Shown in pieces: positions 2,471 through 8,626 of a stretch of 34,012 bases of DNA. Made by a program: the position numbers and the translations under genes. This DNA comes from a virus (taxonomy: Duplodnaviria; Caudoviricetes): the IMG/VR virus record IMGVR_UViG_3300017783_000100, positions 1-34,012 of that record. The stretch is one strand, 5' to 3'. Position 1 is the stretch's first letter. The number at the start of each line of letters is the position of its first letter. The notes under the pieces are model-generated. The model worked only from the letters and a program-made list of their open reading frames with translations. It was not told where the DNA came from and did not search any database.

Positions 2471-2499
2471 AATATACGAAAAGTATCTGAAATAGGCAA
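2471..2499 (-). promoter_or_regulatory. Host-sigma-type (early/middle) promoter for primase-exonuclease
   Basis: The minus strand reads TTGCCT-N17-TATATT (context TTTTCG-TATATT) in the 54-bp gap upstream of the primase ATG. Confidence 0.65.
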
Positions 2500-2500
2500 C

Positions 2501-2914
2501 TTATGATACATCCATTTCGGTAGTATCTATAGCAATACCATGATCTTTCATAGCATCGATTACTTTATCGATTTTTTTATCTGTAGATATATCAACCCCG
2601 GAAGTGTCCTGTAGGAAGTCTTTTACTCTTTTAAGATCGTCGTCTCTTTGTTTTTCTCCGTCTATAGAGATAGAATATAAATCACCATTAGTTGTATAAG
2701 CGATAGTAATTTGTTCGATATTATCATTCCACCCTTCGTTAATGGTATCCATCGCTTCTGCTACTGCTACTCTGATTGTACCTTGGAGTAGACCATCATT
2801 TGGAATATCGTACTTTTCAGAGATAGCGTTAGAGACATGCTCTACGATTACATCGTATTTTTGCATCTCTCCTGCAATACTCAGCTCACTAAGAATAATA
2901 TCGGTTAATTTCAT
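2501..2914 (-). CDS. Acidic hypothetical protein, possible internal head protein
   Basis: N-terminus MKLTDIILSE resembles a capsid-targeting sequence. ATGA overlap with the 47-aa ORF. Confidence 0.6.
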   Translation of the reverse strand: MKLTDIILSELSIAGEMQKYDVIVEHVSNAISEKYDIPNDGLLQGTIRVAVAEAMDTINEGWNDNIEQITIAYTTNGDLYSISIDGEKQRDDDLKRVKDFLQDTSGVDISTDKKIDKVIDAMKDHGIAIDTTEMDVS

Positions 2915-3054
2915 CTTCCTTGTCCTCTATATTTCTTTCTGTAGTTTTTACTACTTTTTAATTTCGACGTTTTAGACTTAGCATGTACGCCCGGTCTTTT
3001 TTTTGCTGGGTTATCTAAAACTATAGCGCTTCCAAAAGCTCCTTTTTTTGCCAT
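2911..3054 (-). CDS. 47-aa highly basic small protein ending in YRGQGR
   Basis: Not in the ORF track. Hand translation gives MAKKGAFGSAIVLDNPAKKRPGVHAKSKTSKLKSSKNYRKKYRGQGR*. Its TGA overlaps the next ATG. The C-terminus resembles small basic proteins of T4-like marine phages (recalled, not searched). Confidence 0.8.
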   Translation of the reverse strand: MAKKGAFGSAIVLDNPAKKRPGVHAKSKTSKLKSSKNYRKKYRGQGR

Positions 3055-3056
3055 CG

Positions 3057-3122
3057 TTACTCGTTACAACTACACCCGCAATCACACTCTCCGTCAAGAC
3101 AGTTTTTACAATTACAGTTCAT
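3057..3122 (-). CDS. 21-aa Cys-rich, metallothionein-like micropeptide
   Basis: Not in the ORF track. MNCNCKNCLDGECDCGCSCNE* has 7 Cys. Its ATG overlaps the cupin TGA (ATGA) and its TAA ends 2 nt before the next ATG. Confidence 0.7.
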   Translation of the reverse strand: MNCNCKNCLDGECDCGCSCNE

Positions 3123-3388
3123 AGTTTAATTACTTTAAGTTTTAAATCTCCGGTACCTTTAATCAATCTATGATATGTACCCTTTTCTATAAATAGTCTA
3201 CCTAAATCTATAGGTACTTCGTTGTCGTACTGGAATTGCCAGTCAGTTTCATGGAGAGGTTCTATAATACGATCTTCTCTGTCTTTATGCCAGACTAACT
3301 CGTCTTGAGTAACTTCTTGAGTAAAAACTCTCTCTTGACCTTCTTCTACGTAAGGTCTACCAGTATCCTGAAAAGTTTCTTTTTCCAC
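3119..3388 (-). CDS. Small cupin-fold putative metalloprotein
   Basis: WHKDREDR (H-x-D-x-E) and LFIEKGTYHRLIKG match cupin motifs 1 and 2. The GTG start overlaps the upstream gene by 32 nt and is uncertain. Confidence 0.65.
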   Translation of the reverse strand: MEKETFQDTGRPYVEEGQERVFTQEVTQDELVWHKDREDRIIEPLHETDWQFQYDNEVPIDLGRLFIEKGTYHRLIKGTGDLKLKVIKL

Positions 3389-3902
3389 CTAATGATTTCC
3401 AATAACGTCCAATATTACAAGCCCAGTATCCTGGTGCTGTTTTGTCTTTTTTCTGTGCACATTTATGACGAGCGGCAAATGAAGCTCTAGCTCCAGGCTC
3501 ATCTATTTTTACGTTTAATCCTGTTGTGCCTCCAAAATTAACTTTTACTACGTTTCCTTTAGCGTTCTTAGTATAAACTACAAACTTTTTAGGACCACCT
3601 CTTTTAGGCTTATTTAACGGTACGTCTTTACCTCTGTATTCTGCTTCGTCGACTGTGGGTAGATCTAAAGGTACTTTGTCTCCTTCATATAGACCATACT
3701 CTCCTATGTCGGTAGATTCTAATAATTCTAAGTCTTCTTCGTTGAGTTGTATTTTGCCGTCTCTAAGGGCTTCTCTAGCTTCTTTAAATAAAGATATAAA
3801 CTTCTCGCTAGAATAACGGTAGACATTCTCGTGTAAAGTGAGTCCATGTTCTACATGGTAGTTTAACGATGGAATATCTATAAGATCTTTTATCTTAATC
3901 AT
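3357..3902 (-). CDS. Conserved-looking phage hypothetical protein (acidic N-half, basic C-domain; possibly DUF6321-like)
   Basis: C-domain AEYRGKDVPLNKPKRGGPKKFVVY...KVNFG...RASFAARHKC...GYWAC. The family name is recalled, not verified. Confidence 0.6.
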   Translation of the reverse strand: MIKIKDLIDIPSLNYHVEHGLTLHENVYRYSSEKFISLFKEAREALRDGKIQLNEEDLELLESTDIGEYGLYEGDKVPLDLPTVDEAEYRGKDVPLNKPKRGGPKKFVVYTKNAKGNVVKVNFGGTTGLNVKIDEPGARASFAARHKCAQKKDKTAPGYWACNIGRYWKSLGGKRNFSGYW

Positions 3903-4386: not shown

Positions 4387-5784
4387 TTATGCAAACGATA
4401 TTTTACAAATTGCTGTACCGTTTGGTGAAAAGTATAAACAACCGGCTCCTGCTGAACCAGAAACCCATATTGCTCCGGCGGTAAGTGGATTAGGTGTTGA
4501 ACCTAAAGTTCTTATATTCATAGTAGAATTAGAACCTGAGATGTTAAGGTTGTTTACAAATGTTTGACATTGCTGATGATAAAAAGATTTTCTGTAGCAT
4601 GCATCTGCGTTGTATTCTTCTGTAGATGTTACGCAGCTTTCCCCAGCAAAAGCTATAGCCGAATCTTTACTTCCTCCATATCCATGTCGTTGCCTGGTAG
4701 CTGGTAATGCTGTTCCGACTGACCAAGTAGTACCGTTGTATTCTTCAGTACAGGTTCTATTAGCAGTAGGATTCCCTCCGTACCCTAAAGCAGCATTTTG
4801 TACTCCAGCAGCGCCTGAGTTTACTCTGTTATTATTTAAATTTCCACTATTAGACCAAGTAGTGCCGTTATACTCTTCTGTACAATTAGTCGTCAACATA
4901 GGGATGCCTGCGTTTCCTCCAAATCCTAATCCTGCATTTTGTGTTCCTGTGCCTGTAATTGTCGATCTTCCTAAATTTAAACTGTTTGATGTTGACCAAG
5001 AATTACCATTATATTCTTCAGTACAAGTTAGGTAATCACCAGGAACACCTGCGTTAAGTCCACCAAAAGCTAACGCTGCGTTTTGAGTTCCTAATCCTCC
5101 TAGTCTAGCTCTACTTTGATTTAAGTTAACCACTACAGACCAAGTGTCACCGTTATATTCCTCAGTTTGATCGGAATAGTTAATCGTAGGAGCACTTATT
5201 CCTCCGAACGATAAAGCAGCATTTTGTGTTCCGGCTCCTCCCATCCCACAAGCCTTAGTATTTAAATTACCTGAATTAGACCAGGTCGAACCGTTATATT
5301 CTTCAGTAGCTGCTGTGTGAAATGGAGCACCAAATCCTTGATTGTAACCTCCAAAACCTAATGCTGCGTTTTGTGTTCCTGCACTTCCAATACTGTCTCT
5401 ACCGGTACTCATAGTACCACCGGCTGACCATGCACCGTTGGAAGATGAAAGGTAATTAAATTCATTTGAACCGTCTACTTTTAGACCGCCGATTATATCT
5501 GCTTGACCTTCGAAAGGAAAAGGATTAACTTCGGTTAAACCGCTTCCATCACCGTTTATTGAACCAGATATAACAGTTATATTTCCTTCAACTTCTAAAG
5601 AACCTGATATACCGGCAGAACCGGTGTATGGAAAATCATCTACTGCACCACCTCCAGATATTCCGGTCAAACCGCTACCGTCTCCTACAAAAGAGCCGCT
5701 TAAAGAACCACTATATCTACCGGGTAGATCTGTTGTAAGACCTCCGGTTGTAATATTAATTGATCCTGTTAATTGTAGTGCCAT
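4387..5784 (-). CDS. Tail-fibre/receptor-binding protein with six-bladed Kelch-like propeller (paralog C)
   Basis: Six GTQNAALxFGG...TEEYNGxxWS repeats, N-terminal GSFVGDGSGLTG fibre motif and C-terminal GCLYFSPNGTAICKISFA. Confidence 0.8.
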   Translation of the reverse strand: MALQLTGSINITTGGLTTDLPGRYSGSLSGSFVGDGSGLTGISGGGAVDDFPYTGSAGISGSLEVEGNITVISGSINGDGSGLTEVNPFPFEGQADIIGGLKVDGSNEFNYLSSSNGAWSAGGTMSTGRDSIGSAGTQNAALGFGGYNQGFGAPFHTAATEEYNGSTWSNSGNLNTKACGMGGAGTQNAALSFGGISAPTINYSDQTEEYNGDTWSVVVNLNQSRARLGGLGTQNAALAFGGLNAGVPGDYLTCTEEYNGNSWSTSNSLNLGRSTITGTGTQNAGLGFGGNAGIPMLTTNCTEEYNGTTWSNSGNLNNNRVNSGAAGVQNAALGYGGNPTANRTCTEEYNGTTWSVGTALPATRQRHGYGGSKDSAIAFAGESCVTSTEEYNADACYRKSFYHQQCQTFVNNLNISGSNSTMNIRTLGSTPNPLTAGAIWVSGSAGAGCLYFSPNGTAICKISFA

Positions 5785-5794
5785 AGTTTAATAG

Positions 5795-7201
5795 TTAAGC
5801 AAATGATATTTTACAAATTGATGTTCCGTCTGGTGAAAAGTATAAACAGCCGCTGTTAGCTGAACCCGATTGCCAAATCATTCCTTCGGTCAATGGGTCG
5901 GGTGTTGTATCTCTATTTGCCAGATTAAGTAAAGCATCTGCTGTTGCAGATCCTGTCACATATAATTGGTTTGAATATACGGTATTCTGTTGACTATAAA
6001 AGTGTTTTCTATAGCATGCATCTGCGTTGTATTCTTCTGTACAGCTTCTAAAACCAGGGGAACTCCCGCCAAAAGCTAAAGCAATATTCTGTTGTCCTGC
6101 TCCACCCGGGCACATACGTGCTGTAGCTAAATTTTCACTAGTAGACCAAGTAGTACCGTTGTATTTTTCTGAAGTAGCAAGTACTACGGTAGGACTAGTC
6201 CATCCTGCAAATGCTAATGCTGCATTTTGTATCCCTGCTCCTCCTGCGTTATACTTAGGGGTAGGTAAAGCTCCGCCTTGTTCCCATGATACTCCGTTAT
6301 ATTCTTCTGTACAACTTGCAACTGGGTTTCCACCGAATGCTAAACCTGCGTTTTGAGTTCCTGCTCCTGCTAAACGAATTCTAGCACAAAGCAGAGAACC
6401 GCCGGCAGACCATGATGATCCATTATATTCTTCAGTACAGGATACATTACAAGTAGGTGTTGCACCGCCGCATTGACCGCCGAATGCTAAACCTGCGTTT
6501 TGAGTTCCTGCACCACCTAAATAACATCTACATATGTTTAATGCACCGCCTATACTCCAAGATGATCCATTATATTCTTCAGTAGAAGTTAAGATTACAG
6601 GAGGATCTTGTCCACCGAATGCTAAACCTGCGTTTTGAGTTCCTGCTCCTGCAAGTTCGTCTCTAGCTGTGTTTAAATCCCCACCTACTGACCAAGATGA
6701 ACCGTTGTATTCTTCTGTGTATGCTCGTTGATAAGGTGATGGATTTGAATAACCCCCAAAAGCTAAAGCAGCATTTTGTGTTCCTGCTCCACCTAAACCT
6801 GTGCGAGCAAAATTCATATCTCCTCCTGCAGACCATGCACCGTTAGATGAACTAGCAAAATTAAATTCAAACTCTCCATCTAATTTAAATCCTCCTATAA
6901 TATCGGCTTGTCCTTCGAAAGGAAATATCTGTACATCTGTAAGACCGCTTCCATCTCCTATTATAGAACCGGATATTACTTCTGTAATTCCGTCTACTTC
7001 TAAAGAGCCTGAAATGATTGCTGAACCGGTATATGGAAAATCACTACTACCACCTCCACCCCCACCCCCACCGGTTATTCCGGTAAGACCAGACCCATCT
7101 CCTACTAGAGAACCTGAGAAAGAACCACTATAGACTCCGTCTCGGTCGGTAGTAATACCGCCTGAGGTTAAATTGATCGATCCTGTTAGTACTAGTGTCA
7201 T
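5795..7201 (-). CDS. Tail-fibre/receptor-binding protein with six-bladed Kelch-like propeller (paralog B)
   Basis: Same architecture, six blades and C-terminal GCLYFSPDGTSICKISFA. Confidence 0.8.
   Translation of the reverse strand: MTLVLTGSINLTSGGITTDRDGVYSGSFSGSLVGDGSGLTGITGGGGGGGGSSDFPYTGSAIISGSLEVDGITEVISGSIIGDGSGLTDVQIFPFEGQADIIGGFKLDGEFEFNFASSSNGAWSAGGDMNFARTGLGGAGTQNAALAFGGYSNPSPYQRAYTEEYNGSSWSVGGDLNTARDELAGAGTQNAGLAFGGQDPPVILTSTEEYNGSSWSIGGALNICRCYLGGAGTQNAGLAFGGQCGGATPTCNVSCTEEYNGSSWSAGGSLLCARIRLAGAGTQNAGLAFGGNPVASCTEEYNGVSWEQGGALPTPKYNAGGAGIQNAALAFAGWTSPTVVLATSEKYNGTTWSTSENLATARMCPGGAGQQNIALAFGGSSPGFRSCTEEYNADACYRKHFYSQQNTVYSNQLYVTGSATADALLNLANRDTTPDPLTEGMIWQSGSANSGCLYFSPDGTSICKISFA
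6329..6652. repeat. Three identical 32-bp blade repeats within Kelch paralog B
   Basis: CCGAATGCTAAACCTGCGTTTTGAGTTCCTGC occurs at 6333, 6480 and 6615. Copies 1 and 3 are identical over 42 bp (6329-6370, 6611-6652). Confidence 0.9.
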
Positions 7202-7210
7202 ATGTTATTA

Positions 7211-8626
7211 TTAAGCAAATGATATTTTACAAATTGATGAACCGTCTGGGGTAAAATATAAACATCCAGCTCCGGCTGAGCCTGATTGCCATACTGTACC
7301 GGCAGTTAAAGGGGAAGGTGTATCTGTTCTATTTGCTAGATTAAATACTGCTTCTACTGTTGATGAACCGCTTACATATAGCTGGTCTGCATATACTGTG
7401 TTTTGCTGTGTATAAAAATGTTTTCTATAGCATGCATCTGCGTTGTATTCTTCTGTGCAAGTACTGCAATTGTTAGCAGGTAAACGTCCTGCAAATGCTA
7501 ATGCTGAGGTTGAACTTCCAGCACTCCCAAGTTGCTGTCTGGCTACATTTAAAGAACTTCTATTTGACCAAGTATTACCGTTATATTCTTCGGTATTTGC
7601 TAGGTAAGAAGGAGAGCAGGCTGGGTTTGTGCCTCCGAATCCTAATGCTGAGTTTTGAGTACCTGAGCCTCTTAATCCTCCTCTGTTAATATTATTTAAA
7701 TTTCCTCCAATACTCCAAGCAGTTCCATTATATTCTTCTGTTTGTGTGTAAGTTGGAGCTGGTCCTCCTCCAAAACTTAAACTTGCATTTTGTGTTCCTG
7801 CTCCGCCTTGATCTTCAACTGCTGCGTTAAGATTACCTCCTGAAGACCATGTATCACCATTATATTCTTCTGTTGCATTGCTATCAGTTCCAGTTGGAAC
7901 CCCGGTTATACCTCCAAATGCTATTGCTGAGTTTTGAGTACCGACACCGCCTAGTTGGTTTCTACCTGTCGACATAGGAGTTACTTCTGACCATGTATCT
8001 CCGTTGTATTTTTCAGTACATGCATATCTAAAAATAGGACTTGGACCATATCCTCCAAAAGCTAAAGCAGCATTTTGTGTTCCGGCTCCTGCAAGAAGTG
8101 ATCTACCGAAATTTAAAGGAGATTTTACACTCCAAGCACTTCCGTTGTAAGCTTCAGTACAGGTATACCCAGATGTAGGTCCTGGTGTATCTCCTGCCAT
8201 TGATAATGCTGCGTTTTGTGTTCCGGCTCCAGCATTAGCAAACATAGCTACATTCATACTAGCTCCTACAGACCATGTATCGTTCGAAGATGAAAGGTAA
8301 TTAAACTCTCCTGCACCATCTACTTTTAATGCTCCTATAATATCTGCTTGACCTTCATACGGAAATGGATTTACCTCGGTTAAACCGCTTCCTTGGCCTC
8401 TTAAAGAACCTGATATTATAGTTACTGGACCTTCAACTTCTAATGAACCAGAAATAATAGCAGAACCGGTGTATGGAAAATCACTACTACCGCCTACAGA
8501 CACACCAGTTAACCCGCTTCCATCTCCTATAAAAGAACCAGAGAATGAACCGCTATACCTACCGTCTTGGTCGGTAAAAGCAGCTCCGGTTGTAATGTCA
8601 ATTGAACCTGTAAGCTCTAGTGCCAT
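7211..8626 (-). CDS. Tail-fibre/receptor-binding protein with six-bladed Kelch-like propeller (paralog A)
   Basis: Same architecture, six blades and C-terminal GCLYFTPDGSSICKISFA. Confidence 0.8.
   Translation of the reverse strand: MALELTGSIDITTGAAFTDQDGRYSGSFSGSFIGDGSGLTGVSVGGSSDFPYTGSAIISGSLEVEGPVTIISGSLRGQGSGLTEVNPFPYEGQADIIGALKVDGAGEFNYLSSSNDTWSVGASMNVAMFANAGAGTQNAALSMAGDTPGPTSGYTCTEAYNGSAWSVKSPLNFGRSLLAGAGTQNAALAFGGYGPSPIFRYACTEKYNGDTWSEVTPMSTGRNQLGGVGTQNSAIAFGGITGVPTGTDSNATEEYNGDTWSSGGNLNAAVEDQGGAGTQNASLSFGGGPAPTYTQTEEYNGTAWSIGGNLNNINRGGLRGSGTQNSALGFGGTNPACSPSYLANTEEYNGNTWSNRSSLNVARQQLGSAGSSTSALAFAGRLPANNCSTCTEEYNADACYRKHFYTQQNTVYADQLYVSGSSTVEAVFNLANRTDTPSPLTAGTVWQSGSAGAGCLYFTPDGSSICKISFA

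Follow-up and report, generated by a model that had tools for sequence, protein, structure and literature searches.

A conserved nine-cysteine micro-gene of Immutovirus-like phages and small-genome marine Bacteroidota likely encodes a minimal metallothionein-like peptide

The beta domain of vertebrate metallothioneins holds a nine-cysteine, three-metal cluster in about 30 amino acids. Zn3Cys9 clusters have been described for Bud31 and MSL2 CXC (PMC7614390). The fungal family-8 copper thioneins of Neurospora crassa and Agaricus bisporus comprise 26 amino acids with seven cysteines, and their copper binding has been demonstrated; the metallothioneins of Cryptococcus and Tremella are built of seven-cysteine units, with Cu5 clusters of seven cysteines and modular growth (PMC4755600). 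Among bacterial representatives, SmtA (56 amino acids) and PmtA (70 amino acids) employ histidine ligands, and smtA is accompanied by the repressor SmtB (PMC12193353). Phage “metallothioneins” have been mentioned as candidate auxiliary genes in metal-polluted soil and in fumaroles (PMC12917443, PMC13317609).

The gene analyzed here belongs to a conserved family of micro-genes in Immutovirus-like phages and small-genome marine Bacteroidota whose products, judging from their sequences, are likely minimal metallothionein-like metal-thiolate buffers. The family consensus, M-x-CxCxxCxC-xxx-CxCxCCxC-stop, comprises 20–23 amino acids with a cysteine spacing of 1-2-1-3-1-1-0-1; the allele in the window (the entire stretch of 34,012 nucleotides that was analyzed) has a spacing of 1-2-4-1-1-1. 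Like the fungal copper thioneins, the peptides are very short and combine CxC motifs with small spacers, and the window allele also has seven cysteines (PMC4755600). However, this is a likeness in anatomy: the family has nine cysteines in 20–22 amino acids, and the spacing of fungal family 8 (CxC-x5-CxC-x3-CxC-x2-C; PMC4755600) differs from that of the window allele (CxC-x2-C-x4-CxCxCxC). With the Zn3Cys9 systems, the family shares the nine cysteines, the count required when three divalent ions are each coordinated tetrahedrally and three of the thiolates act as bridges, whereas the clusters of Bud31 and MSL2 are embedded in larger proteins (PMC7614390) and not in peptides of 20–22 residues with a C-terminal CCxC.

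As in the case of SmtA/BmtA, PmtA, and MymT, the bacterial members are small, cysteine-rich, stand-alone chromosomal genes (PMC12193353), but they resemble SmtA/BmtA neither in length nor in Cys/His ligands, with 21 amino acids in the window allele and histidine in only 1 of 112 distinct family peptides. Whereas smtA has its SmtB repressor, none was recognized by eye beside the inspected bacterial copies of the family. Bacteroidota are not listed among the bacterial metallothionein producers in the accessible text of PMC12193353, yet the family occurs among them. The phage candidates are given without sequence or family in the accessible text of PMC12917443 and PMC13317609, and only the idea of a phage metallothionein is in common. 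The original prediction was not aware of a described equivalent; none was found for the nine-cysteine family, but phage “metallothioneins” in general had already been mentioned in these sources.

The peptides show the sequence features of the metallothionein class: low mass, a very high cysteine content, CxC, CxxC, and CC motifs, and few aromatic residues. A profile search of the PDB returned only wheat Ec, at a non-significant E of 5.3; of the 19 members compared with Pfam, a single one matched the family Metallothio_2 (E 6.4), which is also not significant in a search of low power for 21 amino acids, and a profile search of NCBIfam gave no metallothionein match. An Atlas metallothionein match of locus L309, with a score of 0.80, is a lead only.

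The window is a virus record of 34 kb with nearly every gene on the minus strand, and its baseplate and tail genes continue in the same orientation and with short gaps down to position 2501. The features around the micro-gene are:

2471..2481, minus strand: promoter-like TTTCGTATATT, before the primase gene; sole exact match in the window
2501..2914, minus strand: acidic protein of 137 aa; closes the co-oriented run that starts in the baseplate and tail genes
2911..3054, minus strand: 47-aa Lys/Arg-rich protein (phrog_516, E 0.006)
3057..3122, minus strand: 21-aa, seven-cysteine micro-gene, MNCNCKNCLDGECDCGCSCNE; divergent allele of the 20–23-aa, nine-cysteine family
3119..3388, minus strand: 89-aa protein (GTG start) with a cupin fold; His34, Asp36, Glu38, and His73 are invariant
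3123..3137, minus strand: A-rich start context of the micro-gene, within the 3′ end of the cupin gene, with A at −3 and −6 and without a Shine-Dalgarno motif
3357..3902, minus strand: 181-aa protein upstream of the cupin (phrog_7595, E 8e-12)

The primase of the window shares 65.6% identity with that of a Flavobacterium Immutovirus (next best 37%), the gene order of Immutovirus agrees with that of the window around the cupin, and the 181-aa gene holds the equivalent position. This likeness, together with the co-oriented gene order, points to a host among Bacteroidota and to late expression; the position of the micro-gene at the far end of the tail and baseplate run likewise suggests that it is probably expressed late in infection. 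The primase and exonuclease genes come after the promoter-like motif. At one mismatch, TTTCGTATATT has three matches in the window, which is within chance, and the same motif also stands before new units in related phages; it likely marks where the peptide-bearing run stops.

Several other genes of the region deserve mention. The 47-aa protein, with its weak match to phrog_516, has a conserved C-terminal end of the YRGQGR type and is possibly a nucleic-acid binder. At 4387–8626 on the minus strand, three genes of nearly equal length (465, 468, and 471 aa) stand in tandem; the two that were translated have Cys-containing, Kelch-like “CTEEYNG” repeats in common, and the set is likely a paralogous group of receptor-binding genes. 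Many of the region's small acidic genes share brief N-terminal motifs (MKLxxIxL.E, MxKLKTYNEFVNE) that are followed by unrelated bodies, as seen at 2501–2914 of the window, in slot genes of L006, L016, L053, and L063, and in upstream genes of L084 and L095. These motifs recall, in our estimation, the capsid-targeting leader of T4, in which case the region would presumably be a cluster of packaged internal proteins.

The open reading frame at 3057–3122 encodes seven cysteines, arranged as CxCxxC and CxCxCxC, and no aromatic residues. Its ATG (3122–3120) shares an ATGA with the TGA of the upstream gene, and only two bases (3055–3056) separate its stop codon from the next ATG (3054). Both the composition of the 21-aa peptide and its exact tiling between the neighboring genes had been claimed in the original prediction and are borne out by this reading frame. 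At least seven cysteines occur in 1 of the 131 window ORFs of 15–30 amino acids, versus none of 18,801 such ORFs in 100 order-2 Markov simulations. The region 3057–3122 is spanned with zero letter differences in all four DNA runs that were compared (none marked as source, and chosen out of 14 strong matches); because the contigs of these four runs carry identical letters, an assembly error is ruled out. The micro-gene is real and lies below the thresholds of gene callers, as had been predicted together with its metallothionein-like anatomy, but it is not phage specific, because it also occurs on the chromosomes of marine Bacteroidota.

An A at −3 is present in 69 of 80 phage copies and 16 of 19 bacterial copies, compared with 177 of the 542 minus-strand ATGs of the window. 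Such an enrichment is expected for the start sites of Bacteroidota, but where the gene overlaps a cupin it is not independent evidence, because the same bases also encode the cupin. Judging from the ATGA overlap, translation of the micro-gene may be coupled to the cupin stop; no excess of promoters or terminators was found around the micro-gene. None of the RNA contigs (four runs of six) covered positions 3020–3085 of the window allele. One RNA contig of depth 2 (X16) stops at position 3105, and its loose end matches by eye the sister nine-cysteine allele; it is not evidence of transcription.

The family extends well beyond this locus. A search with a cysteine pattern, made without reference to the cupin, yielded 119 loci out of an estimated 270, mostly stand-alone ORFs of 20–23 amino acids on large, AT-rich phage contigs with varied neighbors. 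This first pattern had fixed six cysteines and left Cys10, Cys19, and Cys21 free; all three are present in 63 of 63 distinct matches with a K/N start and a 15-nt spacer and in 64 of 75 of all matches. Across all loci, nine cysteines are found in 110 of 112 distinct peptides, in four different spacings, and eight in one, although this count is partly circular because one of the search patterns had fixed nine cysteines. About 45% of the family's residues are cysteine, compared with 33% for the window allele; the remainder are small or charged, and aromatic residues occur in 2 of the 112 peptides. A 36-aa form with 13 cysteines (L309:601–711, minus strand) has arisen by duplication of the N-terminal half-module, which resembles the growth of fungal metallothioneins by tandem duplication (PMC4755600).

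A possible objection is that the ORF arose by chance or only reflects the antisense strand of a simple repeat, given that cysteine patterns readily catch simple repeats, which make up about half of the matches to the nine-cysteine pattern. The estimate of about 620 stretches for that pattern is inflated for the same reason: its 109 distinct matches comprise 47 stand-alone genes of 20–22 amino acids, the L309 form, and otherwise simple repeats. Nevertheless, this explanation is extremely improbable and is refuted by conservation, given the null result of 0 in 18,801, the conserved start, stop, and slot, the synonymous variation, the bacterial orthologues at a fixed site, and the stops that interrupt both alternative same-strand frames in 70 of 70 genes.

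None of the PHROG, Pfam, and NCBIfam scans run here recognizes the family, and ten exact sequences are absent from a collection of 15 billion proteins, which may reflect length cut-offs. A catalogue of small phage genes from IMG/VR may contain family sequences without naming them. The same may be true of the small-protein catalogue PMC11364881. Neither metal nor cysteine nor metallothionein comes up in the accessible text of PMC11323111. No published description of the family was found in the literature.

In many related phages, the gene run ends with a conserved hairpin whose GATTCATAGC core is constant while its stems co-vary; after it come a terminator-like stem and a promoter-like motif (L083:3075, L090:837, L092:3080, L101:599, L106:3311, L111:2626, L131:133, and others). 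It usually precedes a gene of about 430 amino acids with a GAGxxG start, which we take to be flavoprotein-like. The hairpin has no match in Rfam (eight loci); it accompanies some copies of the Cys gene but also occurs where that gene is missing, and the window lacks it.

A short, cysteine-rich ORF that is followed in some phage copies by a conserved hairpin and terminator could serve as a leader peptide that senses cysteine, or its product could be a precursor that is matured by modification, but both are very improbable. A precursor should show a leader region, whereas the first cysteine of the peptides is at residue 2–4; no radical-SAM or YcaO family was detected among the 26 window proteins scanned against Pfam, and none was recognized by eye in the bacterial loci. 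RiPP precursors of the ranthipeptide and thiazole types were rejected on the same grounds, since there is neither an N-terminal leader nor a linked modifying enzyme among the 26 window proteins, and the cysteine-rich “substrate peptide” that the original prediction had offered as an alternative likewise has no support. A cysteine-sensing leader is at odds with the location of the micro-gene inside a tiled run, where it is not the first ORF of the transcript, with the variable genes 3′ of the copies, none of which is a recognizable cysteine gene, and with the independence of the hairpin from the Cys gene and its absence from the window.

The gene upstream of the micro-gene has no match in Pfam or PHROG, and a PDB sequence search with its profile gave nothing meaningful. 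However, the AlphaFold2 model of the protein (pLDDT 90) matches cupin-fold proteins in Foldseek, Fe(II) cupins among them, which supports the label “cupin” that the gene had been given from its sequence; the best match is HppE (E 2e-3, probability 1.0), and no row reaches E ≤ 1e-3. His34, Asp36, Glu38, and His73 are invariant in 36 cupin sequences and likely represent a metal site.

Among the best 80 of 264 cupin relatives, whose loci were gathered without any cysteine filter, 13 have a nine-cysteine ORF of 20–23 amino acids at the same −4 overlap. The original prediction had pointed to the region downstream of cupin homologs; the slot, the cysteine spacing, and synonymous variation of the cysteine codons proved to be conserved. 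The other 67 loci lack an intact peptide in the slot and have unrelated genes at the −4 overlap or a cupin joined directly to the basic gene; locus L020, where the 47-aa basic gene directly follows the cupin, is a case of clean absence. In Immutovirus, the slot holds two small hydrophobic ORFs, and the family profile has no match anywhere in the genomes of Immutovirus and Melnitz. A tblastn search of 50,697 phage records found no cultured carrier, although low-complexity filtering could have masked the query. The closest relatives of the window are about 96% identical on both flanks yet carry a different nine-cysteine allele in the slot, which indicates that the gene behaves as an exchangeable cassette. 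The micro-gene is dispensable.

The cupin is the commonest gene upstream of the pattern-found phage copies (35 of the 96 with enough upstream DNA; the record of the window is itself in this count, and one locus enters it twice). This association, the invariant His/Asp/Glu/His set of the cupin, its match to Fe(II) cupins, and two in-frame gene fusions might suggest that the peptide serves specifically to donate metal to the neighboring cupin enzyme or to act as its redox partner. One fusion is complete, with nine cysteines (L300:533–997, minus strand); the other ends in a truncated four-cysteine remnant, inside which the next gene begins (L044:1980–2258, plus strand). Yet such a partnership is quite improbable, because the gene directly upstream is not a cupin in 61 of the 96 phage copies or in any of the 19 bacterial copies, an intact peptide is missing from 67 of 80 cupin loci, and unrelated genes occupy the same −4 overlap. 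Moreover, overlapping start and stop codons fuse easily, and both fusions retain the internal ATG. The cupin is the commonest but not an obligatory upstream neighbor.

A pattern scan of 185,579 species genomes in GTDB gave 12 matches. Seven of these are family genes of low-GC Bacteroidota; of the other five, one is a phage-like contig found within a bin, and four do not belong to the family. The carrier genomes are small (1.2–1.6 Mb in the five that were checked; about 1–1.7 Mb among the small genomes overall). Of 61 genomes related to G005, 20 have profile matches, all of them among the 34 small genomes G005–G038 and none among the other 27. The 15 loci of the G005 type that were fetched all encode nine cysteines and share one fixed site, which adjoins a tRNA-Arg gene and a gene that we presume, from its motif, to encode a cation antiporter. 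Among 41 genomes around each of two further lineages, the profile matched four and seven, respectively. In an order-wide pattern scan of 401 genomes, G001 was the only family match among the matches listed, which indicates a patchy distribution of the bacterial gene.

The bacterial copies stand alone. Judged by eye in the ORF lists (with a profile scan at L207 only), none of the inspected copies has a recognizable metal-sensing regulator beside it, and the sole copy with a recognizable metal-related neighbor sits before a gene of the MerC family (E 1e-14). Four of 89 copies have a small hydrophobic ORF 3′ of the Cys gene; these four are from bacteria, no phage copy has one, and no fusion to such an ORF was seen. 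At L202, L203, L204, L209, L389, and L391, a hydrophobic ORF of 36–53 amino acids is closely coupled to the Cys gene, an arrangement that no examined phage copy shows. Three bacterial copies of 22 amino acids with an extra spacer residue (L396–L398) have a promoter-like box, presumably of the Bacteroidota type, that ends 2–5 bases before the ATG, suggesting a leaderless mRNA. A locus from Woesearchaeota (L206, around position 3001, minus strand) encodes a 39-aa (or 78-aa) ORF with ten cysteines that opens with a CxCxxCxC spacing and is possibly a longer, separate Cys-rich peptide.

Among 14 distinct bacterial orthologues found by profile, the cysteine codons have a pN of 0 and a pS of 0.92, TGT and TGC alternate in eight of nine cysteine columns, and the non-cysteine positions have a pN/pS of 0.61. 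A separate pN/pS analysis is circular with respect to cysteine, and the conclusion therefore draws on the profile-found orthologues: their codon substitutions indicate that the family is under purifying selection on its cysteines. The odd and fixed number of cysteines and the free spacers fit the stoichiometry of a metal cluster better than the pairing of disulfides.

A cysteine content of 45% in small genomes of about 1–1.7 Mb, together with the lack of a visible metal regulator next to the bacterial copies, could also point to a thiol redox buffer, a store of sulfur or cysteine, or an Fe-S scavenger instead of a buffer for Zn, Cu, or Cd. This is improbable, because neither storage nor bulk redox chemistry needs an exact spacing and nine invariant cysteines, and because CxC motifs within 21 residues are unlike the CxxCxxC motifs of ferredoxins. 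Metal binding and redox roles, however, are not mutually exclusive.

By contrast with the family norm, the window allele is the only seven-cysteine peptide among 112 distinct sequences; the original prediction captured the metallothionein-like anatomy, but the seven cysteines that it described are an outlier in a nine-cysteine family. Compared with the nearest subtype, Cys10 is replaced by Asp and the last cysteine by Asn, one Glu has been added, four of ten non-cysteine residues are changed, and two cysteine codons are changed silently; the net charge is −3. No second seven-cysteine allele was found in IMG/VR, and a further scan of JGI data for such alleles gave 15 matches, all with nine cysteines. 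The JGI match L214 is not independent, because it is identical to the window allele in length and sequence.

These findings raise the question of whether the family is metallothionein-like while the window copy is decaying under relaxed selection and forms no proper cluster. Its solitary position among 112 peptides, the nine-cysteine allele carried by relatives with flanks of about 96% identity, the lack of an independent seven-cysteine allele in the IMG/VR and JGI scans, and the existence of a truncated four-cysteine remnant fused to a cupin (L044) are in agreement with decay. However, the start, the stop, the overlap, and the 2-nt gap are all intact, seven cysteines have been kept with synonymous TGT/TGC changes while most of the surrounding spacer codons have changed, and the Asp that replaced Cys10 is a possible ligand. 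Fungal units with seven cysteines are functional copper thioneins (PMC4755600), and the allele is unchanged in four of four runs, though these represent the same strain. Decay of the window copy is on the whole unlikely, but with two of nine cysteines lost while four of ten non-cysteine residues changed, selection and drift on this allele are not separated. The allele may be a form of lower capacity or with a preference for Cu, or it may be decaying.

A metallothionein-like anatomy is indicated by the fact that only the cysteines matter, that nine are kept across different spacings, and that no partner gene is required. The peptide would be translated by coupling to the cupin stop, and its thiolates would enclose a small cluster of metal, thereby buffering soft metal ions in the infected cell. 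Since it has neither a signal peptide nor a hydrophobic core, it is probably cytoplasmic and would fold only on metal. The nine-cysteine form could bind three divalent ions (Zn or Cd, in an M3Cys9 cluster) or several Cu(I), whereas the seven-cysteine form of the window would bind fewer ions, as a Cu5Cys7-type cluster like that of the fungal seven-cysteine units or as about two Zn with the help of carboxylates. In the phages, the gene would act as an exchangeable auxiliary gene whose product stores Zn or sequesters toxic Cu or Cd during virion production; in the bacterial hosts, it would serve as a housekeeping metal buffer. More tentatively, the family could represent a new, independently evolved lineage of metallothioneins. 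Marine Bacteroidota would then have their first metallothionein, and no complete peptide for a nine-cysteine, three-metal cluster would be shorter; their large lytic phages would carry the gene as an exchangeable cassette and would retune it, in this case to an acidic seven-cysteine form that prefers another metal, so as to control zinc or copper during infection.

The natural versions with nine, seven, and 13 cysteines and those fused to a cupin make cluster stoichiometry and metal preference directly testable, and their synthesis is cheap. If metal is bound as proposed, the size limit of a natural multi-metal thiolate cluster would fall to about 20 residues. The family would then add a metallothionein to abundant small-genome bacteria of the ocean, which are not listed among the producers in the accessible text of PMC12193353, and lytic marine phages would carry a host-type metal-buffer gene that has been missed by annotation.
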